Shown here in pieces: positions 884 to 22,623 of a stretch of 64,000 nucleotides of DNA. Within the stretch, counting starts at the first letter, position 1. Each line of letters opens with the position of its first letter. The position numbers and the translations under genes were made by a program. The stretch comes from a virus, in the IMG/VR virus record IMGVR_UViG_3300021197_001203, positions 44,316-108,315 of that record. One strand, written 5' to 3'. A model generated the notes under the pieces. That model saw nothing but the letters and a program-made list of their open reading frames with translations, was not told the origin of the DNA and ran no database searches.

Positions 884-1042
884 GAAAAAAAATACCCCGA
901 AAAAAAATACCCGAATATACTCCAAAAACACAGGTTTTTTCGATCAAAATGCCACCATGACAGCCCTGACAAAAAAATATCAGAAAAATCGCCGAGCTGC
1001 GTATGCGGTGAGGCGGGCGCAGCCCGCCAAAAAAAAAAAAAA
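884..1042. repeat. A/T-tract cluster, GC hairpin (1012-1028) and A14 run
   Basis: CGAAAAAAAATACCC occurs twice, with several more A/T tracts. GGCGGGC-GCA-GCCCGCC is followed by 14 A. Confidence 0.7.
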
Positions 1043-1054
1043 TATCGGCACCGA

Positions 1055-1360
1055 AGCCTAGCCATTGCTCAATGGGTGTGGCGGGCTAACCACCATTCAC
1101 CAATGCCATTGCCCAGCCCCATTCAATAGCTAAACCCATTCGATCAGACCAGCTTGAGAACACATTGGTGAATGGCTGGGCTGAAACGCCCAGCAACACA
1201 CCCATTCAAGCCTAAATCTAGGGCTATTGACGGCTATCTGAGGCCATTCACGCCCATCCAGCCCACCGTATATCATTCGGGCTGGTTGCATTGGTCAATG
1301 AGGCCACATTGACACGCCATTCACCCATTCGCCAATCCCATTGACCAATGCCCAGCCAAA
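1055..1360. repeat. Dense array of CATT[CG]/[CG]AATG and CAGCC/GGCTG short motifs; probable terminus, packaging or origin region
   Basis: Roughly 20 CATT[CG]-type copies in both orientations within about 300 bp of non-coding DNA between divergent gene arms. Confidence 0.6.
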
Positions 1361-1633
1361 GCGCAGATGTTCGTGATATAATGAAAGTGGGTTATTGGGA
1401 TAGGTGTCTTAGGTTGGCTGGACGAAAAGAGCATACTGCGGGCTTATCGAGACACGTATGACACGATGGACAGACACAATATACTACTTTTACAAAGAAC
1501 GATTTAATTATACTCTGATTTAGAGTATTATAGAGAGGCTGTCCAGTGTCCAACGTGGGTTTTGTCCTATGTTATCGATGTCTGTTAGAAACAGCCTAGA
1601 AAGGGGTGTTTAGGCTGGTTTGACCAACAGTGC

Positions 1634-1682
1634 TTAAGTAGGGTGTTCAACCCCGTAGGGGTATGTAGTCCGATGTGGCTAC
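1634..1682 (+). promoter_or_regulatory. Early promoter (TTAAGTAGGG) plus 5' leader hairpin
   Basis: TATA-like box with GGG, a C-run, then a GTAGTC...GGCTAC stem. The same layout occurs at 8544, 14187 and 15493. Confidence 0.65.
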
Positions 1683-1703
1683 GATTAAATGGAAGTGTAA
1701 AAT

Positions 1704-4700
1704 ATGAGTATGACAGAAATAATGAATGTAATGAGAATGATACTAGGCAGTCTATTGCCTAGCGTATTCGGCCAAAAGGCTGGATTAGAGATGACTGTAA
1801 TGAGTGAGGCTAGAATCGGTGAAGCTGCCGATCAATTATACCACACCGATTTAGTGCTAATACAACAAGAACTACGCACATTATCGCACGTTGTTATCAC
1901 CAATGAGTGGACTGGTGAACACCCAAAGAGAACCGATATGACACATGGTCTTGAAGCACAAATGAAAGTGGACAGATTAATCAAAGCGTCAGCAACACTA
2001 GAGACATACGCAAATGGCTGTGAATGTATCGAATGTAAGTTTGTAGTAGCAAAGGAGATGCCTAGCCTAAAGAATGTAGTATTAGGGACACCAGTGTCCT
2101 CATTCACATGGACAGGGACAGGTATGGTCGAAGAGGCCATTACACCTGACCCAGCACTAGAATTAGATGTGCCTATTACAGAAGATGAAATTAGGTATCA
2201 CATGAAGAAGTGGAACGGTGTAATACGGTCAACCTTCGTATGGCAACACAAAATGAATGCTGCTGAATTGATCGAAGATTTGCGTAAAGCGTCTTATCCT
2301 GCGGCTGGATATGAACCGACCTATGTTGGTGGTGGCAGTGATGCAGAACACGATTGGGTTGAGGCTAACTATAATTTCGATTCAGAATATGATAGAGAAA
2401 AGAATCGAATGAATGCTTCAATGGTAGTAGTGAATGAGGCTAGAACTGCAAATGGGTATAACCTCGATAGGGATAGGACAATACACGATGTTCAGCCAGT
2501 AGTTAAGTCAATGAAAGAAGTGGAGGGCTGGACACAAGAGATGCTCTATATTATTATCCGTGATAGCACAAACGCATCTGATCGAGTGGAGGCGGCTGAA
2601 ATGCTTGTTGAGCTAAAACAGAAGCAATTACACAGCTATCTGAAAGACAACCTAAAACCATCTGTCTTTAGAGCCGTGGATTTTGTTATTGGTTGTATGC
2701 CTAGCGACCTAGATTTGAACACGACAGTGGTGCAGGAATCCCGTGTTAATGATGAAGAACTTAGAGGCTTTCAAGACTATCGCATGGGTGCAACACATCA
2801 GGCTACTGATGGTCTATACTATGAGACACCATTAGATGAATGCCTGTGGCAGATTCTTGACCGAGAAGATGTGGAGGCTAATTGTGGCTTAGAAGAGGGT
2901 GAAATAACCGAAGCGGCTTGGAAACAATTTCTTGCGTTGCATAAGGATGCCTTCGCTAGTGCGGTTTGTGCGTTGGCTTCGGAATATTACAATGATTATC
3001 ATACACCAAAAGATGACTTGAGCGATACAGTAGTGCAGGAATCAAGAACTAGAATGTCATATATGTTCAAAGAAGGAGATGAATATCCAGTCTCAGTGGC
3101 AAATAAATCTCAAGCTCACAAAATGCTTGTTCATATGATTGCTCATGCTTCGGGGGACGGCACACCTATTGCTATCGTTGTGGCCAACACATATGCAGAT
3201 GAAGCCTTCGACATACCTATGGAAACTCCACATTCAGGAGATGAGTTATTGCATGGGACATATCAAGCAGTCAAAGAAGTTAGAGACGGACAGAGCGTTC
3301 ATGTTCAATTAAGTCGAGACGATGAAAGATTCGATCACACGACAGTAAAAACTAGCCATGTATGGGACAGGAGGACTTTGACTAATTCAGACATTAACAG
3401 ACTTAGAGAGCAATGGAATAGAGAGTTAGATGGTTTAGATTCAGACTCAAGATTCTTTCCTTATTCGATAACTGGTGCGAGGGCTGCTTCTAGCTTAATT
3501 GGCCAGCTTCTGACTAAAGCAGAAGATGATGATTATGGCGGTTCAGTAATGGTCAATGTTCTATGTGCCGAATACAAAGCAGAACAGGTGTTGCGTGTGT
3601 ATAATTTGAAAGATGAGTTTGGCGATCAGATTATGTCTCAAGCGGCTGGGTATAATCTCCCAATGACCGATGTAAGTCTGTTAGAGATGAGTCATTCAGT
3701 ACCACTCATTGGTTATCGTGAGGCTAAAAATACCTTTATTTCATTAGATGGAGGTCGCTGGAGTCTTTCATGGGCTATTACTGGTAGTTATGATGATATG
3801 ACTAATGAGTCGCCTAGAATAGAGATTAGCAACCATTACGTTATTGACAAATCAATTAGAGATTTGTGCGACCACATATTAACACGAAAAGACAGTGGTC
3901 GCTTACTAACCACAGGACAGGTAAAGTCTGATGTGTTAGTCAAAGCCACAAGTAAAGAAAACACATATCTTGTTTCAGACCACCAGTTAAAGATAGTCAA
4001 GAAGGATTTGGCTGACCTTCGATCAGCCGCACAGCTCTCGCTAGATGACACAGTAGTCCATGAGGTTAGATTGGACATACCTGATGAGCATTGGGACACA
4101 CTGATGGAGACATTACTACTAGATACTGAAACAATGGCAATAGAGCCGTCTGAGAGGGACAGAATACGTGAGGCTTTGGATAGTGTCGAGACAGTCAATC
4201 CTTTCTTTGATAGAGGTCAATTGCATTGTGGATTTGATGTTCTTAAGAATCCACTTTACAGAATATCTCTTGCTGATGCGATTAATGTATGTAAAGCAGG
4301 AGGATTAGTGTGGTTGGCTAATGAATCTCAAGATAACTATGGAGGGGAGGACAGCAGACACTATTCATACCCCGTTGAGAACCATGAAGACCTATATGAT
4401 TATGAAGATAGTGAAGAATTATTGATCGTATTAGAACCAATGTTTTACAATAAGCATGGTAATTTACTGGAGGGACATATACTACCTAATTCTAAAGATG
4501 GTGTATGGAAGGTGTCATTGACTCTAGCTAGAGATGCGAGACATAGATTAGCTGATGAAACACACTTCGATGAAGAGCATATTGAAGGCGAAATTAAGTC
4601 ATGGTTAGAGGACATAGACTACCGTGTCCTTGAGTGCGACATTATAGATGTATCAAACATCCCTAATGCTAACGATGGGGTCTATGACTTAGGTGATGCT

Positions 4701-5420
4701 GTAAAGAATCAATTAATGGCTGTCGAGACAGAAGAAGAGGTCAAAGAAATAGCGATTCTTTATCAGACCCGTCAAGCATGGTTGGATGGTTTCAGACACA
4801 AGAATGAGGAAGGTGAATATGAATTGCTTGAGCCTAGCACCAAAGAACAAATTGACGCTTTGTATGTCCCATTACCTAATTCAGTCGTTCTTGATGTGAT
4901 AGAGCAATTACAACCAGTATGGGGTTATCATTGGTCAAAGGTAGTAGGCAATCTTGATACTGTGTCTGATCAGATATTTCACATAATGAACCACGACAAT
5001 AGGAATCCATTGTCAGTCAGTTTCCATAAGCATGGTATAGACGGAGATAGAACCATGCAGAATTGGATGGGGGACAACGGACTGGGACATACATCAATGA
5101 GTATGAATGACGTGATAGCCTACCGACTTACAGACGGCTGGGTGTATCACAGTTGCAGAGCTTTAGGATGGGCGTGGTTGCCTGTTATTCATCAGGCTCA
5201 AGGGGCAGAGAATATGACTCGCTTTGAAAAGGTAAAAGCAATGATTAATCTTGATACAAACAGGATTCCGCTTCAAGAGGGAGAATTAGAATTGATTGAG
5301 GCTATGGTTAATGGTTTTAACCATCCCCGTATCAATGACTCATGGGGGGAACTCAATGAAGATGGAATGTTTTGGGCTACAAAAGCCATGGAAACTCTGA
5401 GTCATGAGGTGATCGAATGA
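1704..5420 (+). CDS. Large modular early protein (polyvalent/polyprotein-like) with repeated linkers and a YodL-like domain near the C-terminus
   Basis: 1238 aa, acidic. Five xxxVV[QNHS]E[SAV]R-type motifs. QIFHIMN...GHTSMSMNDVI...CRALGW resembles the YodL-like H[TS]S[LM]SV[GS]DV signature. Confidence 0.75.
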   Translation: MSMTEIMNVMRMILGSLLPSVFGQKAGLEMTVMSEARIGEAADQLYHTDLVLIQQELRTLSHVVITNEWTGEHPKRTDMTHGLEAQMKVDRLIKASATLETYANGCECIECKFVVAKEMPSLKNVVLGTPVSSFTWTGTGMVEEAITPDPALELDVPITEDEIRYHMKKWNGVIRSTFVWQHKMNAAELIEDLRKASYPAAGYEPTYVGGGSDAEHDWVEANYNFDSEYDREKNRMNASMVVVNEARTANGYNLDRDRTIHDVQPVVKSMKEVEGWTQEMLYIIIRDSTNASDRVEAAEMLVELKQKQLHSYLKDNLKPSVFRAVDFVIGCMPSDLDLNTTVVQESRVNDEELRGFQDYRMGATHQATDGLYYETPLDECLWQILDREDVEANCGLEEGEITEAAWKQFLALHKDAFASAVCALASEYYNDYHTPKDDLSDTVVQESRTRMSYMFKEGDEYPVSVANKSQAHKMLVHMIAHASGDGTPIAIVVANTYADEAFDIPMETPHSGDELLHGTYQAVKEVRDGQSVHVQLSRDDERFDHTTVKTSHVWDRRTLTNSDINRLREQWNRELDGLDSDSRFFPYSITGARAASSLIGQLLTKAEDDDYGGSVMVNVLCAEYKAEQVLRVYNLKDEFGDQIMSQAAGYNLPMTDVSLLEMSHSVPLIGYREAKNTFISLDGGRWSLSWAITGSYDDMTNESPRIEISNHYVIDKSIRDLCDHILTRKDSGRLLTTGQVKSDVLVKATSKENTYLVSDHQLKIVKKDLADLRSAAQLSLDDTVVHEVRLDIPDEHWDTLMETLLLDTETMAIEPSERDRIREALDSVETVNPFFDRGQLHCGFDVLKNPLYRISLADAINVCKAGGLVWLANESQDNYGGEDSRHYSYPVENHEDLYDYEDSEELLIVLEPMFYNKHGNLLEGHILPNSKDGVWKVSLTLARDARHRLADETHFDEEHIEGEIKSWLEDIDYRVLECDIIDVSNIPNANDGVYDLGDAVKNQLMAVETEEEVKEIAILYQTRQAWLDGFRHKNEEGEYELLEPSTKEQIDALYVPLPNSVVLDVIEQLQPVWGYHWSKVVGNLDTVSDQIFHIMNHDNRNPLSVSFHKHGIDGDRTMQNWMGDNGLGHTSMSMNDVIAYRLTDGWVYHSCRALGWAWLPVIHQAQGAENMTRFEKVKAMINLDTNRIPLQEGELELIEAMVNGFNHPRINDSWGELNEDGMFWATKAMETLSHEVIE

Positions 5421-8284
5421 GCTGGAAAGTAATTGAGCTAGCCGACTCAACACCAGCACCTGCTATGGATGGTGATGAATCCTTTGACACTATGGGGGGT
5501 TATGCACATACAAGTCTATACGAACGTGCGGTCAAGCTGGGCGCATGGTGTCCTTCAACAAACAAAGACGGCTTCATGTGGTCCATTGAACAAGCTGAGA
5601 TATTAACTAAGACTCAAGTCGATTTAGTTAAATGGACACACTACGGAATACCTTGTCGTGTTTCGATCAATAGTGTTGCAGGTAGTGGTAAAACTACACT
5701 GATTGAAGGGATTGCCAAATTGATTTGTAATATGGGGCTAGGCAATCAGAAGATAATCATGACAGCCTTTAACACCCACATAGCAAAGGCATTAGGTGAT
5801 GTGGCTAAGTCTCTCAAGAAGAGTGGTCTAACAGGCTTCAAATCAATGGGTTATAGCAACACAGCCTCAGCTGGTGGTCGTGAGCTGTTATTCAAAATGA
5901 TAAGGGCTAATGGTATGACACCTATTCAGGATGACCAATACAAATACAGGAGTCTCAGTCGCCAAGTGTTTTCTGAGATAGCAGGAATGAAAGAGATGTT
6001 GATAGGCATAACAAGTCAGCATGAAGAGATTAAGAATCCAGTGGCTGGATGGATGAGTGGCACTAGGGCTATTGAACACCTAGTAAGTGCATCAATGGCC
6101 AGTGGGATAATTACAGAGACAGAAGGTAGTATTGATTCGATCAAGAAATTGATTACAAGTGAACACGGACAACGTGATGATGTAGTATTTCTAATTAGTT
6201 TCCTCGGTGTTGATGCAGTGGCTAATGCTGTTGAACAAGTCATAGAGAGGGCTATGGACACTTTGGTGTCAGACATAGTGTATAGAGCAGACAAGGATGC
6301 AGTAGTGCCTGATTCAGTCTCAGGCTACTATTCACGCAGGTCATTAGTATCAGTGGCCGAATTACTAGCCCAGCCCAATGGACACCAAATACACAGGCAG
6401 TTAGGTGTGGACTTTCCATACAGGAAAGAAGTGCCTAAACAGGTAATGAATCATGAGCTTGGTAGTTTAGCTAAAGTTCAGAATCGTGGTGGTGTATCAG
6501 GCACTTACAAAGTATTGATCGAAGATGTTGATGATGGGTCAGCTTGTTTTAGGTCAGCTAGCTATGCAGCATCTAATATTGTCATGGGTAGTGTTCAGGA
6601 CATAGAAACAAGGCTGGGAGTTTCGTTTCAATATGTCCCTCGCAATAATCAGGTTGTTCTTCGTAATTTAATCAGGACAGCCTCAGAAGACAACCAAGCA
6701 CCAGTGCCTGAATGTCAATACAGATACATTGTATCTAAGGACAGGGCACAAATATTGAAGGCTATTATTAACGAAGTATTAGGTGCAAAGAATGTCGAAT
6801 ATAGCAGTGAAGAGGTTCTTACGACAGGAGTCGCTACATCAGGCAGCAATGCCACTGTGCCTGTGTCGATGCAGGACTTTGTGTATGGTTGTGTTTATCA
6901 TAATCTAACCGACCCAGCACCAGCGGCTATGATAATGATTGATGAGGTGCAAGACTTTTCTCAATTACAAGGTAGGTTCTTACAGTGCTTTTCTAGTTCT
7001 AATACTTCTATGATTTGTGTGGGTGATGTTAGACAAAGCTTGTATCTATTCAATTTTGCTAACAGTAAAGCGACCAAGATGATCATAAATGATTTCAATT
7101 GTGATGTGATGCCTATGACTATTTGCTGGCGAAACAGTAAGAATGTAGTCTATGATGTTCATCAATTTGTCAATCAATGTATTGCTGAGGCGGGGGTTGA
7201 TGGTTATGATAAATACAAGTTATTGAATGCTGGTATGGGTGATTATTCAGCACATAAATGTCCTGATGCGGATTACTGGCCTGATGGTAAAAGGTCTGTT
7301 GTTATGCCAGCGCATTTGCTACCTTATGCGGCTCAATTAGGAGATATAGTGTCGTGTAGGATAAATGCGCCATTGGCTAAATTAGCTTTGAGGACGCTAG
7401 TGGATGGTGAAAAGAGTATTACATTACCCGCTGGTAAAAAGGGAATAGGTGAAGAGGTTATGTCAATAGTCAAGGGTGGCTTGAGATATAATGGGGCGCA
7501 TCAAGGATTCGGTTTGTTAAATGGTGATGAAGCTAGAGAATATCTCGATCATGATACAATAGAAAAGAGATATGATTCATACATGGACACTAACTATGAA
7601 GCGGCGGTAAAGAGGTGTGGTGGTGATTTGACAGCGGCTAAAAGTGAGGCTACTTATGTAAAGCTGGCCGATATTGCTGATGCAGCTCAGACGTTGCTTC
7701 ATGGTTATATTGACAGAAGAGGCGAAAGTGGGACAGCACCAATGGCTAAGTTTGAGGGTTGGTTGAACACTTTATGCGGTGAAACAGAAGGCAGGTCAGG
7801 TCATGATAATACTATCAGATTTGCATCGGTTCATAGGACAAAAGGCGCACAAGGCAAACAGGCATTCGTAATAACTGATCGAATAAACCACGAAGGTCAA
7901 TTGAAACCCACGTTTATGTTGCCACATTGCATGAATAATGCAGCCGAGGTCGTGCAGGAAATAAATGCAGCTTATGTAGCAGCAACGAGAGCCATTGATA
8001 GAGTGGTCTTTGTTTCCTTCTCTCAAGCACTAGCTGATAAATATCCAACATGGGAATCATTCAGCTTAGTATGGAATCAAGAGATAGAAGAAGGTCAGAA
8101 GGTTGTAGCAACACAGAAGATAATTGACCAAGATAACGAATATGGGGTCATAGCTAACACTGGCGATTCAGGAGAGGTTATCCATGTAGCTGAGGATGGT
8201 TTTCCTTGCGTTAGATTTGAAAGCGGTTTAGCTACCGATGTATCATTCGACCAAATAGTGGAGGCGAACAAGCACGATGAGTGA
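5417..8284 (+). CDS. Superfamily 1 (UvrD/Rep-like) helicase with large insertion and C-terminal SH3-like extension
   Basis: Motifs AGSGKTT, TAFN, IDEVQD, VGDVRQSLYLF, ICWRN, SVHRTKGAQ, YVAATRA. Confidence 0.9.
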   Translation: MSWKVIELADSTPAPAMDGDESFDTMGGYAHTSLYERAVKLGAWCPSTNKDGFMWSIEQAEILTKTQVDLVKWTHYGIPCRVSINSVAGSGKTTLIEGIAKLICNMGLGNQKIIMTAFNTHIAKALGDVAKSLKKSGLTGFKSMGYSNTASAGGRELLFKMIRANGMTPIQDDQYKYRSLSRQVFSEIAGMKEMLIGITSQHEEIKNPVAGWMSGTRAIEHLVSASMASGIITETEGSIDSIKKLITSEHGQRDDVVFLISFLGVDAVANAVEQVIERAMDTLVSDIVYRADKDAVVPDSVSGYYSRRSLVSVAELLAQPNGHQIHRQLGVDFPYRKEVPKQVMNHELGSLAKVQNRGGVSGTYKVLIEDVDDGSACFRSASYAASNIVMGSVQDIETRLGVSFQYVPRNNQVVLRNLIRTASEDNQAPVPECQYRYIVSKDRAQILKAIINEVLGAKNVEYSSEEVLTTGVATSGSNATVPVSMQDFVYGCVYHNLTDPAPAAMIMIDEVQDFSQLQGRFLQCFSSSNTSMICVGDVRQSLYLFNFANSKATKMIINDFNCDVMPMTICWRNSKNVVYDVHQFVNQCIAEAGVDGYDKYKLLNAGMGDYSAHKCPDADYWPDGKRSVVMPAHLLPYAAQLGDIVSCRINAPLAKLALRTLVDGEKSITLPAGKKGIGEEVMSIVKGGLRYNGAHQGFGLLNGDEAREYLDHDTIEKRYDSYMDTNYEAAVKRCGGDLTAAKSEATYVKLADIADAAQTLLHGYIDRRGESGTAPMAKFEGWLNTLCGETEGRSGHDNTIRFASVHRTKGAQGKQAFVITDRINHEGQLKPTFMLPHCMNNAAEVVQEINAAYVAATRAIDRVVFVSFSQALADKYPTWESFSLVWNQEIEEGQKVVATQKIIDQDNEYGVIANTGDSGEVIHVAEDGFPCVRFESGLATDVSFDQIVEANKHDE

Positions 8285-8543
8285 GGGGACACAGGACACA
8301 CCTGCATGGGCTAAAGCAGCTCTAAAGGTCAAAGGAGTAGGGGTTGGAACCCCTACCCCCGAAGACTGGGATGGTAGGTGTGATTCTTGTGGTCAATCAG
8401 GCGTTTGCCACCACCCTCATGATCAAGTCGTATGGCGACTTAATGAGAGTGAAGTGTGCTTAAAATGCAATCAATTACTACATGGTAGCCCCACAAAGGA
8501 TGAAGAGAGATGTGCTTCTTGTGGCCGACTATGGTGTGAATGA
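8277..8543 (+). CDS. Small zinc-finger protein
   Basis: CDSC, CLKC and CASC pairs; overlaps the helicase stop; GGAGG RBS. Confidence 0.65.
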   Translation: MSEGTQDTPAWAKAALKVKGVGVGTPTPEDWDGRCDSCGQSGVCHHPHDQVVWRLNESEVCLKCNQLLHGSPTKDEERCASCGRLWCE

Positions 8544-8592
8544 TTAAATAGGGTGTATTCCCTAGAGATTGATGTCCTACGTGGACAGGAGT
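8544..8592 (+). promoter_or_regulatory. Early promoter (TTAAATAGGG), 5' hairpin and RBS
   Basis: Box at 8544-8553; TGTCC-TACGT-GGACA stem at 8573-8587, followed by GGAG. Confidence 0.65.
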
Positions 8593-8602
8593 ATGATGAG
8601 AT

Positions 8603-11061: not shown

Positions 11062-11062
11062 T

Positions 11063-11800: not shown

Positions 11801-11809
11801 GGTGATTAA

Positions 11810-13703: not shown

Positions 13704-13966
13704 TGCCTATACGTGCAAATAAAACATTAAGATTAAGAAACAAATTAATTGCATTCTTAAAGGTGCGAGGCACTGCTTCTTCAAGGCAATTGCTCGATCA
13801 CTTCAACTCAACGACAAGACAAGGCTCAACCATGAATAGCATGACAAACGTGCTAGCAAAAGACCCTAGATTCAAAATAGTAGGACATACCAAAGTATCA
13901 AAGTTTTCAGGTAAATACTCTATGCTAGTGTGGGGTCTTTCAGGTGAAGAAGAAGAAGAAGAGTGA
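13703..13966 (+). CDS. Small basic winged-helix-like protein (DUF3860-like)
   Basis: Basic 87-aa protein with the pattern LLDHFN..TRQG.TM..MTNVLAKD.RF...VW. Confidence 0.55.
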   Translation: MPIRANKTLRLRNKLIAFLKVRGTASSRQLLDHFNSTTRQGSTMNSMTNVLAKDPRFKIVGHTKVSKFSGKYSMLVWGLSGEEEEEE

Positions 13967-14186
13967 TACGTTGTGCAACGTGCATCATTTGAGAGTCAGA
14001 AGAGAAACTAAGTGTAGGTTATGTGGTAGGTCATATTCATGAGAAATAGAAGAGCTTGCAGGTGGTGTGGAGGCAAGGTCGATCACAACCATGATAGGAA
14101 ATATAGGTGTGAAAATTGCCCCCCAAAATGGAACGCACGATAAAACAAAAAATGCCTCGCAGTATCACGTTTAGCTGACCTAAGTA

Positions 14187-14246
14187 TTATAAGGGGTGCC
14201 CCCCCTCATAGGTAATGTAGTGGACACGGGGCCACTGAGAATGGAG
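14187..14246 (+). promoter_or_regulatory. Early promoter (TTATAAGGGG), 5' hairpin and RBS
   Basis: Box at 14187-14196, a C-run, then AGTGG...CCACT stem at 14219-14236 and GGAG. Confidence 0.6.
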
Positions 14247-14377
14247 ATGAAGAGAATGACAACAGATAAAACGGAATGTAATGGTAAAGAATGTATGTGC
14301 GGCACTAAATCATCAGGTGAGATGATAGTGCCTATTGGACAGGGACACAGCTGGTGTCTTGATTGTGGAGGGATTGT

Positions 14378-15427
14378 ATGAGCCACATGAAACATGAATC
14401 ATGGATGATCAGATTGGACAACAAAGCAGTTAATAAAATGGAGTTAGTAAAACACTTCTGTCTAAATATAGACTGGGATTCGATTGTCGATCAAGCGTAT
14501 GACTGGTGTAAAGAGAATCATTACTTAGGTCAGCAGCCTACACTTATGGATGAATTGCCTAAAGTAAAGCAGACAGAATATAGCTCAAATAAAAGAATGG
14601 CCGACCTATGGTCTAATACTGAATCCTCATTAAGAAGTCAAGCAATACTTAGAAGACAGCCAGTAAAAGTAGGCGGTGGATTCATTGTGCGATTTAGTGG
14701 TAATGGGTCAAGAGCTGGCCCTCATTACGGTTGCACACTTGGGACTAATTGGGTATCGACAAAGGCAGGTGTTGATACAATAATCCATGAGCTGGCGCAT
14801 ATAGCTCATCTAGGACGTTATCATAAAGCAGTGATTAATGGACGGGCTAGGCCACACGATATATTTTACAATAGGATTATGCTGACTGCTATGGACGCAG
14901 CGTTTGGTTTGACTAAATCATGCACTGACCCCATTTACATGGGTTATTCTGTTGGTAATGGCTATGCGCCAACATCAAAGGTAAAAGGAATGATTAATCT
15001 TGATACAGACAGGATGAAGCCATTCATCACAAGAGAAAACTTTGATTGGTTGGATGATCGAGAAGAAGCAAAACAAATCAAGGCGGCTAAACCAAAGAAA
15101 CAACGAATTACAAGACAAACAGGTGAAGGGACATACGAAACTAATTGTGGTGATATTGAAATTACCAATGTTGGTGGCTACGGCTATACTTGTTATGAGA
15201 TTGAAGCACCAAACGGATTCAATTGGTGTGGTGCCCATTACAAAGAAGTTAATACAATCAAAGAGGCGTATTCCTACCTAGGCACGTATGACAAAGACAA
15301 GGGACGATACACAGGTGATGAGCTAGAACGATGCGAGGCTGGTTGTGATTGTGAATGGGACGTTGTTGATAGCGAGCATTACAGTTCTGTCCGATCACTT
15401 GATGGTCTAGCGTCATTGTTTGCATAG
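14378..15427 (+). CDS. Zincin-like (SprT-like) metallopeptidase domain protein
   Basis: IIHELAHIAH (HExxH) with a downstream PHDIFY third ligand. Start reassigned to ATG 14378 after GGAGG. Confidence 0.7.
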   Translation: MSHMKHESWMIRLDNKAVNKMELVKHFCLNIDWDSIVDQAYDWCKENHYLGQQPTLMDELPKVKQTEYSSNKRMADLWSNTESSLRSQAILRRQPVKVGGGFIVRFSGNGSRAGPHYGCTLGTNWVSTKAGVDTIIHELAHIAHLGRYHKAVINGRARPHDIFYNRIMLTAMDAAFGLTKSCTDPIYMGYSVGNGYAPTSKVKGMINLDTDRMKPFITRENFDWLDDREEAKQIKAAKPKKQRITRQTGEGTYETNCGDIEITNVGGYGYTCYEIEAPNGFNWCGAHYKEVNTIKEAYSYLGTYDKDKGRYTGDELERCEAGCDCEWDVVDSEHYSSVRSLDGLASLFA

Positions 15428-15492
15428 AGGTATTGGGTGAATACCCTATATGAATTAATTAGGCAGTAAGTTAGAGTATCAAACTGCTGTAT

Positions 15493-15540
15493 TAATATAG
15501 GGAACCTACCCCTGAGAGGATTACCACTACGAGTGGGAGT
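15493..15540 (+). promoter_or_regulatory. Early promoter (TAATATAGGG), 5' hairpin and RBS
   Basis: Box at 15493-15502; CCACT-ACG-AGTGG stem at 15524-15536, followed by GGAG. Confidence 0.6.
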
Positions 15541-15541
15541 A

Positions 15542-16519
15542 ATGATTGAGATGACGAGAAAGATATTGAAAGAGAAACTTGAAGCACAGCTAGAAGGAAT
15601 GCTAACACCCGAAATAGGGCCATTATTAGAAGTGGCCGGATCGCTATGTAAGGAGATATGGCATGAAAAAAATGGTGTCTATCTTGATGCCGATGACCGT
15701 AAGGTCAAGCAGCAAACAAATGATGTATTGGCGGTAGTCGATTCAGTCAGCCATATTGAAATCAAATTAGGCAATGGTAAAGTATTATCATTTGGCAATG
15801 CTAAACCTGACAAACCAGCTATGACTATACCTTACGGCATGAGTGATAGAATCAATACAGCAGCAATGCCTAAAGATTGGTTGCCTATGGCTCTATACCA
15901 ACACTTAGTCGATGTATATGAAGGAGACACTACCTTTGCACAGGATGTTGCAGATTATCTGAATAAATGTATTGACGCAGCTACTGAGATTAGTGAAGAG
16001 GGTAGGCTTTCGATCAACAAGAAGAAACTACCGACTCCTTCAGCTACTGTGTTTACACAAGGTTTAGTGGAGTCTCACAAAAGAATGTTCAAATCAAAAA
16101 CCAAAGGTTCAACAGTATTCAATCTGACTTGTAGTATTGAAGATATTCAAGACGACCAGCCACTTAGAATACCACCACGATTAACGGGATTCATATCCCC
16201 TAATATCATAGAAACTCCAGTTGCGCCACCAATGACTTCAAGGCCGCACACTTTACAGTCAGAAGCAACGGAGGACAAGGAGGCAGACGAAGGTGGTATG
16301 TCTGTTTCCGACCACTTGTTCAATGTGCTGGGTAATGACCCACTAACTAAGGGCATGATCAGAAAGGCGATAGCTGATAACGTCCCTGAGCCGATGTGGG
16401 TGGCTGAATTAGATAAGCTGGTCAAAGAGGGTATCATAATCAAGGACGCTAGTGGTGGGCCTAGAAGCACAAAATATGTGGTGGTTTCACCTATTCCTGA
16501 TTTGGAGGTGATCGAATGA
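15542..16519 (+). CDS. Hypothetical protein with possible C-terminal winged-helix
   Basis: Long ORF; Pro-rich linker, then LTKGMIR...LDKLVKEGII....G..RSTKY. Confidence 0.7.
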   Translation: MIEMTRKILKEKLEAQLEGMLTPEIGPLLEVAGSLCKEIWHEKNGVYLDADDRKVKQQTNDVLAVVDSVSHIEIKLGNGKVLSFGNAKPDKPAMTIPYGMSDRINTAAMPKDWLPMALYQHLVDVYEGDTTFAQDVADYLNKCIDAATEISEEGRLSINKKKLPTPSATVFTQGLVESHKRMFKSKTKGSTVFNLTCSIEDIQDDQPLRIPPRLTGFISPNIIETPVAPPMTSRPHTLQSEATEDKEADEGGMSVSDHLFNVLGNDPLTKGMIRKAIADNVPEPMWVAELDKLVKEGIIIKDASGGPRSTKYVVVSPIPDLEVIE

Positions 16520-16899
16520 AGGCAAATGGTATTCCTGTCAAAGAGGCATACATTTTGAGAGCTTCAGGCGAGCTAGATTATACTCTCTTGTCTGAAGAGG
16601 ATTGGTTTGAAGAGGTTTCAATCATATTAGGAGGAATGGTTGAGCCTGTAAATTATGTTAGAGAACACATAGGTGAAATGTATGTAAATGAAGAAGGCAT
16701 ACCTTTAGGACTCCAACCTAATCTTTTAGCTATGTCATTATTTGACCGACAGCCTTTCGGAAACACAGTGTTTAGAGGTAATGTTGTCTTGATGAGAAAA
16801 GGCATGAATGCTGATGTTAGAAATAACATAGACCTACTGATCGCATCAATGGAAATACAAACAAAAGAATGGTTCGATGTAAAGGAGGAAGAGGAATGA
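16516..16899 (+). CDS. DUF3846-like protein
   Basis: LGGMVEPV...MYVNEEG..LGL.PN..A...GNVVL. Confidence 0.7.
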   Translation: MKANGIPVKEAYILRASGELDYTLLSEEDWFEEVSIILGGMVEPVNYVREHIGEMYVNEEGIPLGLQPNLLAMSLFDRQPFGNTVFRGNVVLMRKGMNADVRNNIDLLIASMEIQTKEWFDVKEEEE

Positions 16900-17118
16900 A
16901 TAATTACGAATGTTCATGTTGTGGTCATATATGGGCTGATGATGACGGACAACCATGTGGATGTGGTGAAGAATGAGCGACACAGAAAAGACTTGTTGTG
17001 AATGGTGTAGTGAAACTATCTCATCTAAAAAAGATGAGAGACGCATTAGAGGGGAGACGATTTGTAAGGATTGTAAAGATGGTTGGAATGAGCAACCTGC
17101 TGATGGGGGGTTTTGGTA

Positions 17119-17364
17119 ATGAGCAAGGCAACAGAATATGCAATATTAGTATGGGATGTGAAGCCCGAAGATTACCCCTTTCTCGGTTGTATAGACAGGG
17201 AGTTCAACGTGGACACTCTTGATGAGGCAAACAAAATCTATGAAGGTTTAACGGATGTGTTTGCTAAGGAACTACATCACTATTACGAATACAAAACACA
17301 TGGGTTCATGTCTAGTTCTAACTGTCTAATGTCATGGGCGATTGAAGGAGATGATGATGAATGA
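17119..17364 (+). CDS. Hypothetical protein, probable paralog of 9984..10208
   Basis: ORF within the operon; similarity seen by eye. Confidence 0.65.
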   Translation: MSKATEYAILVWDVKPEDYPFLGCIDREFNVDTLDEANKIYEGLTDVFAKELHHYYEYKTHGFMSSSNCLMSWAIEGDDDE

Positions 17365-17588
17365 GCAAAGAAGATTATTACATGAGTAATGAACACGGTG
17401 CGGCTCTTTACTTGTTTGCTGGTGCAGGAGATTTAAGATTCGTAATAACGCCTAGTGGTGATGGACGCATTGAATTGAGTCAGCCTAGAAAACATATTCA
17501 ATTTAAGTTAGATAACTCTCAAATCACTATGATGACTAAATATCTTAATGAAGAATACGAGAAGGTGTATCAGGAGGAATCAGAATGA
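17361..17588 (+). CDS. Hypothetical protein
   Basis: ATGA-coupled ORF. Confidence 0.65.
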   Translation: MSKEDYYMSNEHGAALYLFAGAGDLRFVITPSGDGRIELSQPRKHIQFKLDNSQITMMTKYLNEEYEKVYQEESE

Positions 17589-18007
17589 AGTTTATGATAG
17601 AAGTTGAATTGTCAAAGGAGGACATTTGGGGTCAGCTTGTTGGGGCTTTAGAAGGAGGGAGTAATTATTGGATCGATTATGTTGAAGAACAAGTTCCTAA
17701 AGATTTCACCCATGTAAGCTCATCTGAAGTGCCTTATAGTAATCAAGAAATAGATTACCACACTAAGAATCAAACCTATTCATATACAAGTCAGCTGCCG
17801 TTATTAGGTGGTTCATTTACAGTTATAGAGAGAGGTTATGACCACAACCCGAAAGTGGTCAATGCAGAAAATATCCTAGCTGGCCTAAAAAAAATGGCTG
17901 AAAAATCACCAAGACACATGAAAGATTTGATCGAGGAAACATTCGACTCAACAACCAGTGATGTATTGCTACAATACACTGTCTTTGGAGAGGTTATCTA
18001 TGGGTAG
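17585..18007 (+). CDS. Conserved viral hypothetical protein
   Basis: ALEGGSNYW and the C-terminal D...SDVLLQ..VFGEVIYG pattern recalled from phage early proteins. Confidence 0.75.
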   Translation: MKFMIEVELSKEDIWGQLVGALEGGSNYWIDYVEEQVPKDFTHVSSSEVPYSNQEIDYHTKNQTYSYTSQLPLLGGSFTVIERGYDHNPKVVNAENILAGLKKMAEKSPRHMKDLIEETFDSTTSDVLLQYTVFGEVIYG

Positions 18008-18233
18008 GACTCGTATAGAGTATAATAGAAAACCACGTTCAAGGTCGCAAAGAAGAGCAAACTTAGTTTGGAGTGGGGCTAGAATGGTATTTGGTTCGCC
18101 TCCTGATTCTATGACTATCATAAAAGCTGGTCAAGGCAGAAGCACTGAATGGATAATAAGAAAGAATGATAAAAAGATAGAGTTGTCAGGAGACAGTAAA
18201 GCGGCTTATCAGAAGCTGATGGAGATGATATGA
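18000..18233 (+). CDS. Small basic hypothetical protein
   Basis: Start reassigned to MGRTRIEY after GGAGAGG. Confidence 0.6.
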   Translation: MGRTRIEYNRKPRSRSQRRANLVWSGARMVFGSPPDSMTIIKAGQGRSTEWIIRKNDKKIELSGDSKAAYQKLMEMI

Positions 18234-19042
18234 TGAAGATAGTAAGGTCATTCCCTAGCTCGCTACCTACTGAATTATTAACTCAATTTTATCGTGTAAG
18301 AAACACGATCAGAGTTGGGGGCGACTTAGTAAGTGTAGCTGGTGAATCGAAAGTCTCAAGATTTCCATACAAAGACGCAAGGTTCCCTATGTGGTCTAAA
18401 GAAGGCATTGAATCAATGTATGATTATGGGCAACATACAGTTTCTTCTAACCCGTTTTTTGTAGGCGGGGTTGAATATCTTGAAGAGCCAAAGGAACCAA
18501 TACATTATACTAATAAAGAAGTATTAGGATGGATAGAATCAGAATATCCTATTCATAATGTTTGGGATGAAGGGGAGATAATTGCTTTATTACCCGAAGT
18601 CGAAATACCCCCTCTTTTCTTCAACAGGGGGCAGATGTATGCAGCGGTTAATATGAATGGCGAGCTGGGGGTTGTCTGTCGTTCTGTGCGTGATTCTTAT
18701 GTTATGATAGACTTTGATGACACCTGTTTAGATGACTTCAAGATTGCAGCTTTAACATCAGGCTGGCAGTGTATAGAGTATGAAACCCATCTATTAAACG
18801 ACCCTCCAGTAATCAGGGCTAATTTATCAGGTCATCACGATTTGAAATATTTCCCAAGAGTCGATGACGGCCATTTTGATCAGAAAACCTTTGCATTTTG
18901 GGTGGGTTCCCGTTGTAAATGGTGTGGCTCATCATCCCTAACACCTCCGTTCTTAGGCGAAAGAGGGTGTGTTGCTTGTAAAACAGTCGGAGAGGATAAC
19001 GTATCTAGTGATAACTTCATTAATCTAAATGATTTAGTGTGA
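18230..19042 (+). CDS. Hypothetical protein with C-terminal zinc finger
   Basis: 270 aa; CKWC...CVAC. Confidence 0.7.
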   Translation: MMKIVRSFPSSLPTELLTQFYRVRNTIRVGGDLVSVAGESKVSRFPYKDARFPMWSKEGIESMYDYGQHTVSSNPFFVGGVEYLEEPKEPIHYTNKEVLGWIESEYPIHNVWDEGEIIALLPEVEIPPLFFNRGQMYAAVNMNGELGVVCRSVRDSYVMIDFDDTCLDDFKIAALTSGWQCIEYETHLLNDPPVIRANLSGHHDLKYFPRVDDGHFDQKTFAFWVGSRCKWCGSSSLTPPFLGERGCVACKTVGEDNVSSDNFINLNDLV

Positions 19043-19078
19043 GTGATTAAAGGCAGCACTACATTCAGATCGCTTAAG

Positions 19079-19405
19079 ATGAACGATAAAAGGCTCAAGG
19101 CAATAAGCATAGAGAGAAGATACAGGGTGTTTCATTCGGCATGGACAGATATACTGAGAGAGCTTAGAGCTGAAAGAGGGGCTTTGTTAGGCAGCAGTGA
19201 ATATGATGACCAATTAGCTATGCAGAAGGCTGTTAGCTTAGATTTGATCGACCAAAGAATACAAGACGCTGAAACATGGATGACAAGATACCAAAATGAG
19301 AGAGAGGATAATTACAGGAAACTGAAATGGAATGCACGAAAGCTCATCAATGAGATAAAGACCATGACTGATAATGAATTGGAGGCAGGGCACCATGAAA
19401 TCTAA
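19079..19405 (+). CDS. Helical/coiled-coil hypothetical protein
   Basis: ORF track 19043..19405; first ATG at 19079. Confidence 0.65.
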   Translation: MNDKRLKAISIERRYRVFHSAWTDILRELRAERGALLGSSEYDDQLAMQKAVSLDLIDQRIQDAETWMTRYQNEREDNYRKLKWNARKLINEIKTMTDNELEAGHHEI

Positions 19406-19539
19406 AGTTAAGTGTAGTAGCAGGTGTCTCGATCCAAGAGGTAAACCAATTTATATGATTCGTGGTCCTGAAAAGTGGATGGTTATAGAATCAAGAAAAG
19501 CACCAACTTTAGTGTGCCCTGCTTGTAGGGGGTGGACAT

Positions 19540-20067
19540 TTGAAAGAGTTTGAAGATGTGTCCAATCATCAAATTGAGTGGTGCGATAGACTTTGGACAT
19601 CACTAAAGATAGACGCTAGCTGGACATTACCTAGTGTTGGCATCTATATCAAAACAGGAACCTACGAATTAACCTTGAATGAATTATTCTTTTCAAAACC
19701 AACGCCTGACGCTTTTGGCATGAACGCATTTGATACGCACGATTGGGTTATTTACGTGGCAGGACTTTTGAATTGGAATGTAAAAACCGAGATTGTAAAA
19801 GCCCATGACTGGGATGGGAACGAAGTTGAAATGTGGGACTCATCGAGGGTAGGTGAAGTTGATGTATGTTCTAAAAAGTGTGGTGCGGTAATACGAATTG
19901 AACCTTATGTTGCAGGAAACCATTACACACAGATTGACGACAAAGGTGTTTGTCCTTGTTGCGATCAAATAGGTTTTGAAAGTCAGTGGTTTAATTGTTG
20001 GGTAGTGGTCGATGATCGAGCTGCGAGATTGAAGATAGAAAACAGCTGGATAAAAGAAGAGGAATAA
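19540..20067 (+). CDS. Hypothetical protein with zinc-binding Cys
   Basis: TTG start after GGGGGTGG; CSKKC...CPCC. Confidence 0.65.
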   Translation: MKEFEDVSNHQIEWCDRLWTSLKIDASWTLPSVGIYIKTGTYELTLNELFFSKPTPDAFGMNAFDTHDWVIYVAGLLNWNVKTEIVKAHDWDGNEVEMWDSSRVGEVDVCSKKCGAVIRIEPYVAGNHYTQIDDKGVCPCCDQIGFESQWFNCWVVVDDRAARLKIENSWIKEEE

Positions 20068-20069
20068 AT

Positions 20070-20363
20070 ATGGTCAATAAACACGATTACAAAAGCAAAA
20101 TACATGAAGTTGTGCAAACTTCTTGCCACATGGGTCAGGAATTACATTTGACTACATCTAATGCTTATGGTAGTCGTGTCTTGAATCTTAGGATGAATAG
20201 AGTGGTGCCTAGTAAAACAGGTTATACTGGCTACACAAAGGTTGGTGTATTTATGACAAGAAAAGAAGCTACTCAGTTAAGGGATGCTTTGATTGATTTG
20301 CTAGCTGATGATATAGCGTGGGATGAAGGGGAGGATGAATGGAATGAAATGGAACACAATTGA
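20070..20363 (+). CDS. PC4/YdbC-like ssDNA-binding protein
   Basis: G..VLNLR...TGYTKVGVFM...A..LRDAL resembles the PC4 fold pattern. Confidence 0.55.
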   Translation: MVNKHDYKSKIHEVVQTSCHMGQELHLTTSNAYGSRVLNLRMNRVVPSKTGYTGYTKVGVFMTRKEATQLRDALIDLLADDIAWDEGEDEWNEMEHN

Positions 20364-20808
20364 TGATTTTTTAGAATATCACCACGACATAATTAGGAAA
20401 TTGACCGAGGGCTGTTTTAGAGAAACTTATCTAAGAGACAAATACTATAATAAAAACACAAAGGAAATTGAAACTGAAAGAAAAAAATTAGACATTGACA
20501 GCATAACTCGGTTATCTTTTGAATTATGGAAACAAAGTCGTGTCTTTAGTAATAGACAAGTATTCCCTTTGTGTTTTGATTGTTGTTATTTGATCATGAA
20601 AGCAACAGGCAACAAGGTTTCAATAACTGAATTAGAAATGGTAGGGTTAGAAGCCGTAGGCAATCCAGTGTCGGCTCTTAAATGGCGTAAAGAAAGATGG
20701 TTTGAATCAGAAAAGGGCAAACAAGCTATTCTGAATGTGTTGTCAGATGGTGATAGCTCACACCCCTCATTCATACTAGAGCTGTATGAGGATTTAATTG
20801 AAAGGTGA
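20344..20808 (+). CDS. Hypothetical protein
   Basis: Start MKWNT after GGAGG. Confidence 0.65.
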   Translation: MKWNTIDDFLEYHHDIIRKLTEGCFRETYLRDKYYNKNTKEIETERKKLDIDSITRLSFELWKQSRVFSNRQVFPLCFDCCYLIMKATGNKVSITELEMVGLEAVGNPVSALKWRKERWFESEKGKQAILNVLSDGDSSHPSFILELYEDLIER

Positions 20809-20812
20809 TACA

Positions 20813-22255
20813 ATGTTATCTTTCAGGGGCTTTGCTGAATCGTGGAGGGTGCTTCACCCAAGTTTGGGAAATGCTCGCAATAAAGATGTCTTGATCGCAA
20901 ATAACCTAAAGGCAACCATGTCTAATCAATGGCCTGTAATATATTTATTCTATTCACCGATTTCTGAAAAAAGGTTATCAGACGAAGATTTCAGAGAGAT
21001 TTATTACCTACTAACAGGGGCATATCCCTCAGAAGTAATGGAAAATCCTGACTTAATACGATTGATTAGTAAATTATCAGAGACACAAATCACTACTGTT
21101 TCAGTGTTGTCAGCGTATATGCGTATTGAAAGAATAATACAGAACAAGGACAATGAAGTTAGAGCTGAGTTATTAGTCCCTATGTTTAGCGCAATTAACG
21201 AAAGGGACTTGTGGGTCTTTTTAGCCCGATTAAGTGTTAAGGGGGGTGCTACTAAACGAAGAGATATAATTTCAGGGTTGGCCTTAGCTAACGATGAAAG
21301 GTTCCATCATGTCAGGTCTTCTGTTAATCTGTCCGGCTTAAAACGCACCGTGTCTCTCATTTCATCAGGGTCTTTTGATTACAACGCTGTCAGGCCACGC
21401 CTAGGCGTTCCTATGATAATACCAAGTCCATCTTACGAAAAAGACCCCTCTTCAATATCTTTTACTAAATGTTATGCCGAAGAAGTTGAGGGGGCATGGG
21501 TGTCTATCCACAAAACAGCCGCAGGGACTACTTTTGGCTATACTTCGTCCGGTGAAGAGCTTCCTGATGAGGACAACCAATCTTCACTTAACGCATGGGC
21601 TGAGGCGGCTGGTTTGCCTACTGGCATATTCCTATGTGATTACGCTGAAATGAGAGAAACGCAAGTTATGGTAATTGACTGGCTAACCCCCAGCGACCCA
21701 AAGATGCCCTTCAATAAGAGACATGAATATTTGCTCGATCATGTGGATTCATGGGCAATGAAAAAGTTAGTGCCATTAGACGACCCTTTAGATTCGATAG
21801 CTATCACAGGTAATAAAAGGCCGATAATAATAAGAAATGCAAGGGGCATTATTTCTTATGAGAACACGCCTGATGAGGTTGTATTAATCAAAACAGAAGA
21901 AACTCCTAAAATATTCAGGGTCATATCAGGCAAAGTAATACAATCTCAGACAGGCTCACCACCTACTATAATATGGGCAATATCAGCTAGAGATGGGCTG
22001 GGCTATTACACGGTGGGCGACATGGAAACCGAAAACCAAATTGCAGACCGATATATCAAAAGACACATAACGTCTAGTTTCAAGATGTTAGAAGGCGAAT
22101 TGATAAGGATTGATGTCCCTTGTTTTGTCGAAGTCGAAGTTATGTCAGCTGGGTGGGGGGATTATGGTCCTTATATTGTAGGCCGTATAGTCAAAGGTAG
22201 CCCCACTTCAGGTATATCGAATGTAGTAGGTATTGAGGAATTGGGATGGATTTAA
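20813..22255 (+). CDS. Degenerate ATP-dependent DNA ligase-like protein (catalytic Lys absent)
   Basis: Ligase-like order: helical N-domain, RPRLGVP, then EEVEGAWVSIHK in place of E.KYDG.R.Q.HK, PFNKRHEYL, and an OB-like C-terminus (ARDG...Y.VG, FVEVE). Confidence 0.6.
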   Translation: MLSFRGFAESWRVLHPSLGNARNKDVLIANNLKATMSNQWPVIYLFYSPISEKRLSDEDFREIYYLLTGAYPSEVMENPDLIRLISKLSETQITTVSVLSAYMRIERIIQNKDNEVRAELLVPMFSAINERDLWVFLARLSVKGGATKRRDIISGLALANDERFHHVRSSVNLSGLKRTVSLISSGSFDYNAVRPRLGVPMIIPSPSYEKDPSSISFTKCYAEEVEGAWVSIHKTAAGTTFGYTSSGEELPDEDNQSSLNAWAEAAGLPTGIFLCDYAEMRETQVMVIDWLTPSDPKMPFNKRHEYLLDHVDSWAMKKLVPLDDPLDSIAITGNKRPIIIRNARGIISYENTPDEVVLIKTEETPKIFRVISGKVIQSQTGSPPTIIWAISARDGLGYYTVGDMETENQIADRYIKRHITSSFKMLEGELIRIDVPCFVEVEVMSAGWGDYGPYIVGRIVKGSPTSGISNVVGIEELGWI

Positions 22256-22623
22256 GCAATGACCAAAAAGATTTGATTGTCTTTGCCTCTAGCATAAGAG
22301 GGGGTATTGTTTCCCGAAGAAGCAGTAAAAGACGATGTGGTTATGAAATTAGAGTCGAATTAAATATTAAAAACACCTCTGACAGAAACATTGTCGCTAA
22401 GGTATTAGATGGTTTAGGTGTAAAACATAGAAAAACTTACACTAATTCAGATGAAATAGATAAAATAATGAAACTGATCGAGGGGTTAGAAGGACTTTCC
22501 GATACAACACACGGCTTGAAAATGGTGAATCGCCTTAATGGTGTGCTAAAACAGCCTGAAACCCATGATGAAGTCATACTAGCTTTATCGCTAATACAAA
22601 CACATTTGGAAGTGAGAGGTTAA
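22246..22623 (+). CDS. Degenerate LAGLIDADG-like protein
   Basis: N-terminal helix followed by GYEIRVELNI; the acidic LAGLIDADG residues are not conserved. Confidence 0.4.
   Translation: MDLSNDQKDLIVFASSIRGGIVSRRSSKRRCGYEIRVELNIKNTSDRNIVAKVLDGLGVKHRKTYTNSDEIDKIMKLIEGLEGLSDTTHGLKMVNRLNGVLKQPETHDEVILALSLIQTHLEVRG

Follow-up and report, generated by a model that had tools for sequence, protein, structure and literature searches.

TCGATCA heptamers on the early arm of a probable Poseidoniales virus as likely selected DNA sites

The IMG/VR virus record IMGVR_UViG_3300021197_001203 carries, on the arm that holds its early and replicative genes, an array of 30 copies of the heptamer TCGATCA (TGATCGA on the opposite strand), which are probably functional sites maintained by selection. 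The stretch analyzed here, referred to as the window, is the last 64 kb of this 108,315-bp record and has a G+C content of 0.40–0.43, rather than the ~39% assumed in the initial annotation that had singled out the heptamer. Its core proposal, that the copies are sites selected at the level of the DNA, is upheld by five lines of evidence: the excess survives codon-preserving null models, it is confined to the exact heptamer, the spacing of the copies is even, their density is retained in the closest relative read (L028), and a different heptamer is conserved on the same arm of a more distant one (G004). The statement as a whole, in which selected sites are joined to a protein that reads or modifies them on an arm exposed early in infection, is a credible proposition that is given slightly less than even weight.

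The heptamer array and its excess over null models

The array comprises the following copies, given in window coordinates:

940 to 22481, both strands: heptamer array of 30 exact TCGATCA/TGATCGA copies (effective word BTCGATCA), located by pattern search.
Array copies 1 to 15: 940, 1140, 2269, 2579, 3331, 4019, 5410, 5663, 6137, 6516, 7545, 7876, 8920, 9496, and 10476.
Array copies 16 to 30: 11175, 12017, 12182, 12846, 13794, 14079, 14487, 15055, 16010, 16509, 17928, 19245, 20013, 21735, and 22475.

Every coordinate of the original manual count was matched exactly by this search, and the estimate of about 10 further copies in the other 41 kb of the window turned out to be exactly 10, giving a window total of 40. 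The whole record holds 54 heptamers, 30 of which fall within genome positions 45,255–66,796, or 20% of the genome. Counted per 5 kb, they number 8, 7, 8, and 5 across 45–65 kb of the genome and 0–3 in all other bins, with a minimum near the record ends, and the density within the array is ~1.4 per kb.

Compositional models predict a small fraction of these copies. For the 21.7-kb cluster, Markov models of order 2 and order 3 yield expectations of 3.4 and 2.8, respectively, against 30 observed, and TCGATCA is the top over-represented 7-mer of both the region and the genome under Markov models (z 14–17). A dinucleotide shuffle of the whole window gives 6.7 ± 2.3 copies (maximum 13) against 40 observed. 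Synonymous-codon shuffling, which holds every protein and the codon usage of each gene constant, raises the expectation to 9.2 ± 2.1 in the cluster (maximum 17 in 300 shuffles; 30 observed) and to 21 ± 3.5 in the whole genome (54 observed). A constrained Markov chain Monte Carlo (MCMC) procedure of synonymous swaps, barred from creating the 43 hexamer palindromes that are absent from the genome, RGATCY, CCGG, GTAC, CGCG, or three asymmetric avoided words, predicts about 10 copies in the cluster (range 5–16), again against 30. These codon-preserving nulls are conservative, because the codons that the motif itself supplies are kept and the intergenic copies are left untouched. In an unbiased scan of all 7-mers on the arm against the codon-shuffle null, TCGATCA reaches p = 1e-8, with the runner-up word at 2e-5.

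The ~10-fold enrichment first claimed therefore stands against compositional models (about 9–10-fold), whereas against codon-preserving models it comes down to ~3-fold (z ~8–10). The k-mer test that had been proposed was run against both Markov and codon-shuffled nulls and the excess survives both; at 30 copies versus 9–10, it did not vanish once codons were preserved, the outcome that the initial annotation had named as fatal to its proposal. Beyond the cluster, the genome is mildly enriched, with 24 heptamers against 5–10 expected from Markov models or ~12 from codon shuffling.

Anatomy of the word

The placement of the copies is indifferent to coding. All five stop-free reading frames are used, encoding S-I, D-Q/H, R-S, I-E/D, and D-R, and 3 of the 30 copies are intergenic, which, with the survival of the excess under codon nulls, bears out the earlier argument that amino-acid use does not account for the array. 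An amino-acid or codon explanation is ruled out by this frame use together with the codon shuffle and the constrained MCMC. Both orientations occur, as had been noted, with 16 copies on the plus strand and 14 on the minus strand in a run pattern that is random (18 runs vs. 15.9 expected). The copies at 5410 and 16509, described as the only two that overlap a ribosome-binding site, were both found to overlap GAGGTGATCGAATG start regions. Mimicry of an extended Shine-Dalgarno or anti-Shine-Dalgarno sequence (GGTGATC) was rejected, as it fits merely 2–3 copies at gene starts.

The excess belongs to the exact word alone, as the 21 one-mismatch neighbors total 62 copies against 71 expected. Of the 32 occurrences of TCGATC on the arm, 30 have A as the next base. 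The base at −1 of the 30 array copies is T in 17, C in 9, G in 4, and A in none, and the effective word is accordingly BTCGATCA; off-arm copies have A at −1 near its background frequency. A ban on ATCGAT as the cause of the missing A was ruled out, as ATCGAT is present three times in the block. No conservation of the flanks past −1 was found around the array copies, and a longer hidden repeat is thus rejected. GATC outside the heptamer runs flat along the genome at ~7 per 5 kb, so that it is the heptamer that is local and not GATC in general.

The copies are also more evenly placed than random, as established by the spacing dispersion test that had been suggested as a check. The mean gap is 743 bp, with a coefficient of variation of 0.54 against 0.97 for random placement (P = 0.0003), a largest gap of 1722 bp (P = 0.006), and a smallest gap of 165 bp (P = 0.001). 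No helical phasing of the heptamer spacings was detected. A sequencing-adapter artefact was discarded, since the word is not the start of an Illumina adapter and the arm is present in marine metagenomes of seven studies, in which the virus is detected. Assembled contigs of four runs differ from the arm at 511 points, 40 of which were listed, and none of those 40 falls at a heptamer.

Turnover of sites in relatives and a different word in G004

Megablast against phage records found no close relative, and a degenerate 20-mer scan of IMG/VR for relatives returned chance matches only. Relatives were instead reached through a marker gene of the arm:

5417..8284, + strand: SF1 UvrD-like helicase gene (955 aa), carrying five heptamers; marker for finding relatives.

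This helicase has one near relative among 5.8 billion proteins (P0002, 72% identity), and the closest relative read is L028, a 2.1-kb Tara scaffold of the P0002 virus whose helicase is 70% identical. L028 contains 3 heptamers in its 2.1 kb against 0.2–0.7 expected (P 0.001–0.03), and it has no CCGG and no GTAC. A codon alignment of the two helicase genes, whose products share 70% of their amino acids, shows a single site common to both, two specific to the window, and two specific to L028, one of these differences being purely synonymous (GAT CGA vs. GAC CGA). Comparison of these sites argues that the density of the heptamer is kept while its positions turn over.

In G004, whose helicase is 57% identical, TCGATCA is absent altogether and another heptamer is concentrated on the corresponding arm:

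G004 62,000–80,544 (= L022/L032; L030 overlaps), both orientations: AGCTCTC-enriched homologous arm, from k-mer counts.

There are 22 copies of AGCTCTC on this arm against 3.2–4.5 expected; the remainder of the G004 genome has 8, with 7.9 expected. The copies are divided 11 to 11 between the strands and use all frames, the neighboring words occur at expectation, and G is never found at −1 (HAGCTCTC). L030, which is 91.3% identical to G004, retains each of the nine copies in the stretch where the two overlap. None of the 63 motif columns has changed, against a background of 8.7% (P ~0.003), and this comparison of sequences indicates that AGCTCTC of G004 is under purifying selection. The AGCTCTC excess is gone in L031 and L033, at 76–77% nucleotide identity. 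No word clearly stands out in the early arms of L029, L031, and L033. As hints, CCCGATCC occurs 7 times against 0.4–0.7 expected in L029 (11.8 kb; helicase 46% identical; G+C 0.53), which is near noise, and AGCTCTT occurs 13 times against 3–3.6 in L033; CCCGATCC may be another GATC-centered arm word in this more distant relative. In the repeat of the analysis that had been proposed for relatives and hosts, L028 keeps the density, G004 has an analogous word, and candidate hosts show no enrichment.

Avoidance of restriction-type words

The genome in which the heptamer accumulates is otherwise depleted of short palindromes. Of the 64 hexamer palindromes, 43 are absent from the 108 kb, many of them with 17–66 copies expected, and CGCG occurs 7 times in the genome against about 90–200 expected. 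GATC appears within a limited set of flanks, RGATCY and CGATCG both being absent. The related genome G004 lacks 45 of the 64 hexamer palindromes, and three more distant relatives (G001–G003) have zero GATC and zero AGCT in 91–109 kb, G003 having in addition zero TCGA and zero ACGT. The absence of 43 of 64 hexamer palindromes and the relatives with zero GATC and zero AGCT point to unusually intense restriction pressure in this virus-host system.

Part of this avoidance is restricted to the arm. Comparing the arm with the rest of the genome, CCGG occurs 7 vs. 128 times, GTAC 6 vs. 118, GTCAC 9 vs. 120, CAACTA 0 vs. 39, and GAGACC 0 vs. 29. Arm-specific purges of other words are seen in relatives, namely GTAC in G002 (1 on the arm vs. 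85 elsewhere) and AGTTC in G004 (0 vs. 64). T5-like phages are restricted solely via sites in the first-step-transfer region (PMC10644984), and in Autographiviridae motifs matter in the leading region only (PMC12455610). By analogy, these purges lend indirect support to the earlier suggestion that the arm may be the DNA that enters first, and they give it the signature of DNA that meets restriction without protection.

Such distortions of word usage raise the question of whether the heptamer is a non-functional by-product of codon or dipeptide use, of palindrome avoidance, or of a mosaic origin of the arm from a donor with other oligonucleotide usage, a reading that is considered improbable. 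The missing palindromes and restricted GATC contexts do distort k-mer statistics, codon-preserving nulls do lift the expectation from 3 to 9–10, the arm does have an oligonucleotide signature of its own, and other words of G004 reach p ~1e-7. Even so, the 30 copies remain 8–10 standard deviations above codon- and constraint-preserving nulls, one-mismatch neighbors are not enriched, and the spacing is under-dispersed. The density that L028 keeps through gains and losses of sites and the conservation of the G004 word beyond background speak against it as well, and a mosaic origin would merely move the question to the donor, while arm-specific signatures recur in relatives. Palindrome avoidance in particular is ruled out as a source of the word by the constrained MCMC and the neighbor counts.

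The early arm and its virus

The arm consists of a gene block on the plus strand that starts at a divergent intergenic region, with the array filling its promoter-proximal part:

285..32285 (genome 44.6–76.6 kb), + strand: early/replicative block, word-depleted; the array fills its promoter-proximal two thirds.
About 1704–32193, + strand: gene block of the arm, starting at a 770-bp divergent intergenic region.
883–912: tandem A-tract repeats CGAAAAAAAATACCC where the arm begins.
931..1704: divergent intergenic control region ahead of the first arm gene, with the heptamers at 940 and 1140.
1058–1355, both orientations: ~8 iterons CCATTSRCCAATGSC within the divergent intergenic region.
1704–5420, in the + strand block: first early gene, encoding a 1238-aa protein that is a chain of small modules.

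With its iterons, the divergent intergenic region may be an origin or a regulatory region. The recognized genes of the arm encode the UvrD-like SF1 helicase, in which no nuclease domain was found, a thermosome-type chaperonin, a Sak4-like ATPase, a PAPS-reductase/DndC-family protein, a PD-(D/E)XK nuclease, and an ERCC4 nuclease. No archaeal DNA polymerase B or primase was recognized by Pfam or PHROGs among the scanned arm proteins, many open reading frames having no match of any kind, and tRNA and Rfam scans of the arm found nothing. Segments of the 1238-aa protein match unrelated stand-alone proteins of 50–170 aa (HMMER, 1.8 billion representatives); it has a single full-length relative, at 78% identity, and its gene is absent from G004-like genomes.

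The host of the virus is probably a member of the Marine Group II (Poseidoniales) archaea. The best cellular relatives of the chaperonin are thermosome subunits of Poseidoniales metagenome-assembled genomes (45–46% identity), and its viral relatives lie on IMG/VR contigs of 91–108 kb. This fits the magroviruses, whose terminally redundant genomes measure ~100 kb and include a chaperonin among the replicative genes (PMC5434244). The ends of the present record are assembly breaks within a repetitive giant gene, and they carry no terminal repeat.

Several further observations concern the arm itself. ACACAG is a second arm-restricted word, with 23 of its 48 genome copies at 928–19927 of the window in both orientations. 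Marine metagenome variants show cassette-like deletions or replacements at 2444–2719, 4777–4828, 5150–5418, 9982–10204, and 16909–17359, and a 221-bp skip in natural variants removes a small open reading frame at 9984–10208. At 13613–14279 the contig depth is 60.8 and 197.9 in two runs against about 1–7 elsewhere; this segment, in which no tRNA or Rfam family was found, is apparently shared with a much more abundant source.

Candidate readers and a proposed mechanism

The word is exact, asymmetric, 7–8 bp long, indifferent to orientation, and quickly replaced between lineages, and it therefore resembles the target of a methyltransferase recognition domain or of a monomeric DNA-binding protein. 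Several genes of the window encode candidates for either role:

32159..33943, − strand: divergent C5-DNA-methyltransferase-like gene (594 aa), phrog_116 (E 8e-5).
25213..26190, + strand: PAPS-reductase/DndC-superfamily gene (325 aa), PF01507 (E 7.8e-15) and phrog_424 (E 3e-38).
9481–9987 and 11194–11544: zinc-ribbon proteins, candidate binders.
10205–10744: phrog_624 DNA-binding protein, candidate binder.

The C5-methyltransferase-like protein has the motifs FSGVGG, GSPTC, and ENP, in which the catalytic PC is replaced by TC and ENV by ENP, and it has a very basic N-terminal segment and a shared leader. A syntenic homologue in G004 is 51% identical over the first 181 residues and patchy thereafter. 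The gene is found in the two heptamer genomes (G000 and G004) and is absent from G001–G003, the genomes with zero GATC and zero AGCT. This leader-tagged protein is put forward as the first candidate reader or writer of the heptamer. The PAPS-reductase-like enzyme is an alternative candidate modifier that may act by phosphorothioation; its domain is clear and its gene lies outside the heptamer array, and no phosphorothioation NTPase partner of the DndD, SspC, or BrxC type was recognized in the virus. Enzymes of the PAPS-reductase family make sequence-selective phosphorothioate marks, GATC included (PMC12914056).

In the mechanism proposed here, BTCGATCA would be a positively selected recognition word, read on the duplex DNA of a head-tailed virus and marking the 21.5 kb of its early/replicative arm that lie nearest the promoter. 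This arm would be the first portion of the genome to become exposed in the cell, or one exposed without protection. A lineage-specific sequence reader would bind or chemically modify the arm at the heptamers, which would cover all of it at sub-2-kb resolution, and the specificity of this reader would evolve as fast as a methyltransferase target-recognition domain. The reader would most likely be encoded by the virus, with the C5-methyltransferase-like protein as the first candidate and, as alternatives, the PAPS-reductase-like enzyme or one of the small zinc-ribbon proteins encoded early. The marking may serve to protect the early arm, to silence it, or to time its activity. Methylation, phosphorothioate marks, and the loading of a co-ejected protein, all raised in the initial annotation, may each be what the sites are for.

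A number of points weigh against this mechanism. A protective mark normally gives no reason for its sites to accumulate, which leaves the selective benefit unexplained, and an asymmetric word of 7 bp is short for a specific binding protein. The readers named above are candidates drawn from sequence alone, the link to the methyltransferase consisting of a weak profile match (E 8e-5), motifs identified by eye, and co-occurrence in five genomes. As the record ends in assembly breaks, the description of the arm as first exposed rests on analogy, and the evidence from the closest relative spans 2.1 kb only. Late-region words of G004 reach p-values similar to that of AGCTCTC (CAGCTCA, 7e-8) and the AGCTCTC copies are unevenly spaced, so that the parallel offered by G004 is good but not unique.

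Extended to the clade, the proposal becomes a tentative one that is rather more doubtful than the mechanism for this virus. Each lineage would keep its own exact asymmetric heptamer (BTCGATCA here, HAGCTCTC in G004) at high density on the arm that is the first to meet the host, and a fast-evolving reader, delivered in the virion or made early and possibly a repurposed C5-methyltransferase, would coat or mark the arm to protect, silence, or time it, amounting to an early-arm code.

Alternative roles for the sites

Two other functions for selected sites were considered, both of them as improbable as a non-functional origin. Nicking and type IIS-like enzymes typically recognize asymmetric words of 7 bp, and the heptamers could be cleavage or nicking sites of a virus-encoded site-specific endonuclease that seeds recombination-dependent replication or the exchange of early-gene modules, akin to the nicks of T5-like phages. 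The arm is rich in recombination genes, its natural variants differ by cassette-like indels, and the word is present on both strands, which would suit such an enzyme. T5 nicks are confined to one strand, and the presence of the word on both strands here counts against that parallel. No nickase or HNH/GIY-YIG gene was recognized in the arm by Pfam and PHROGs scans, and variant indels and contig breakpoints miss the heptamers except at 5410–5418. Sequence-specific nicks are mentioned for T5-like phages (PMC10644984).

The second is the Chi-like reading raised in the initial annotation, in which a processive helicase-nuclease of the host or virus would be attenuated at the word, protecting a linear leading arm or stimulating recombination. 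Chi sites are exact, asymmetric, lineage-specific words of 5–8 nt that in some phages are over-represented and clustered toward one end, lambdoid phages with 20–32 terminally clustered Chi sites being known (PMC12315714). The arm starts with the UvrD-like SF1 helicase gene, and a gene for a PD-(D/E)XK nuclease lies close by. Chi is active in a single orientation, however, and Chi-rich phages show ratios of 20:3 or 32:0 (PMC12315714) against the 16:14 of the present array. The word would also be expected in the host, yet 156 Poseidoniales genomes, among which the true host is not identified, hold it at 0.005–0.48 per kb against 1.4 per kb in the virus, and the five hosts with the closest thermosome have it at the level of control words. 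RecBCD and AddAB are not known from these archaea. A virus-encoded AddAB/RecBCD with its own Chi, composed of the 1238-aa protein and the adjacent UvrD-like helicase, was also ruled out, because the former is not RecC/AddB-like but modular in make-up and is absent from G004-like relatives; PDB and Atlas look-ups made for this test returned nothing. Chi-like protective sites are accordingly disfavored by the lack of strand bias, the lack of an excess in the 156 candidate hosts, and the lack of a RecBCD/AddAB-like enzyme in the virus.

Least probable is a host-borne self-marker or uptake-type signal (DUS/USS-like), for which the virus would copy a word enriched in its host: some Poseidoniales genomes do reach up to ~4 times random density (0.47 per kb), but none of the 156 comes close to the density in the virus, those five whose thermosome is most similar remain at control level, and the restriction of the word to one arm is left unexplained.

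Comparison with known systems

Functional over-represented oligomers, such as Chi, uptake sequences, KOPS, and matS, are among the few cases in which the word counts of a genome reveal a molecular machine, and the heptamer array is placed with them, outside the Chi family. Every known example belongs to cells or was taken over by a phage from its host. The uncultured archaeal virus studied here appears to keep a word of its own that is confined to one arm and shows no strand bias, and a sister lineage appears to keep another on the corresponding arm.

Among viruses, the lambdoid phage LLS and Pseudomonas phage MD8, which lack a recombination module, likewise have a short, exact, asymmetric, and lineage-specific word that is regional and maintained by density rather than position (PMC12315714). 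Their Chi sites are nearly all in a single orientation and are enriched in the host too, whereas the present array is split 16:14, none of the candidate hosts shows enrichment, and the probable host is an archaeon, a group from which RecBCD/AddAB is not known. A second likeness is to the first-step-transfer region of T5 and BF23 and the early-injected region of Autographiviridae, in which one arm likewise has its own avoided words that are tolerated elsewhere (PMC10644984; PMC12455610). Those leading regions are known for the absence of sites only, and an over-represented, evenly spaced word is not described there. In its ~100-kb scale and its grouping with Poseidoniales by a chaperonin of the replicative cluster, this virus resembles the magroviruses (PMC5434244).

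The targets of type IIG, type III, and BREX methyltransferases and of phosphorothioation systems (dnd, ssp, tdp, and BREX type 4) are likewise exact and asymmetric, 4–7 bp in length, and shift quickly in specificity between relatives; GATC-containing phosphorothioate motifs exist (PMC12914056), and the virus encodes both PAPS-reductase-family and methyltransferase-like genes. Viruses normally avoid or tolerate the targets of methylation and phosphorothioation, whereas here the word accumulates.

In its distribution, the array recalls the domain-marking arrays of bacterial chromosomes. These include matS bound by MatP, the binding sites of SlmA and Noc, and parS bound by ParB. They too consist of a short word that is confined to one domain and neutral in orientation, and in their case a DNA-binding protein recognizes the word and affects the domain as a unit. 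As in such arrays, 30 of the 54 copies found here lie in 20% of the genome, in both orientations and at even spacing. The sites of matS, SlmA, Noc, and parS differ in being 13–16 bp long, mostly palindromic, far sparser, and located on cellular chromosomes, where the present word has 7 bp and occupies a 21-kb viral arm. Should the array be confirmed as functional, abundant ocean viruses would be expected to have a sequence-reading factor, so far undescribed, that works on their early or leading DNA, and for which arm-restricted enrichment together with arm-restricted site avoidance would provide a computational handle on the factor, its specificity, and the genome end that faces host defenses first. 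If true, the early-arm code would signify a viral counterpart of chromosomal domain marking and would add a new layer to the arms race that archaeal viruses wage over restriction.

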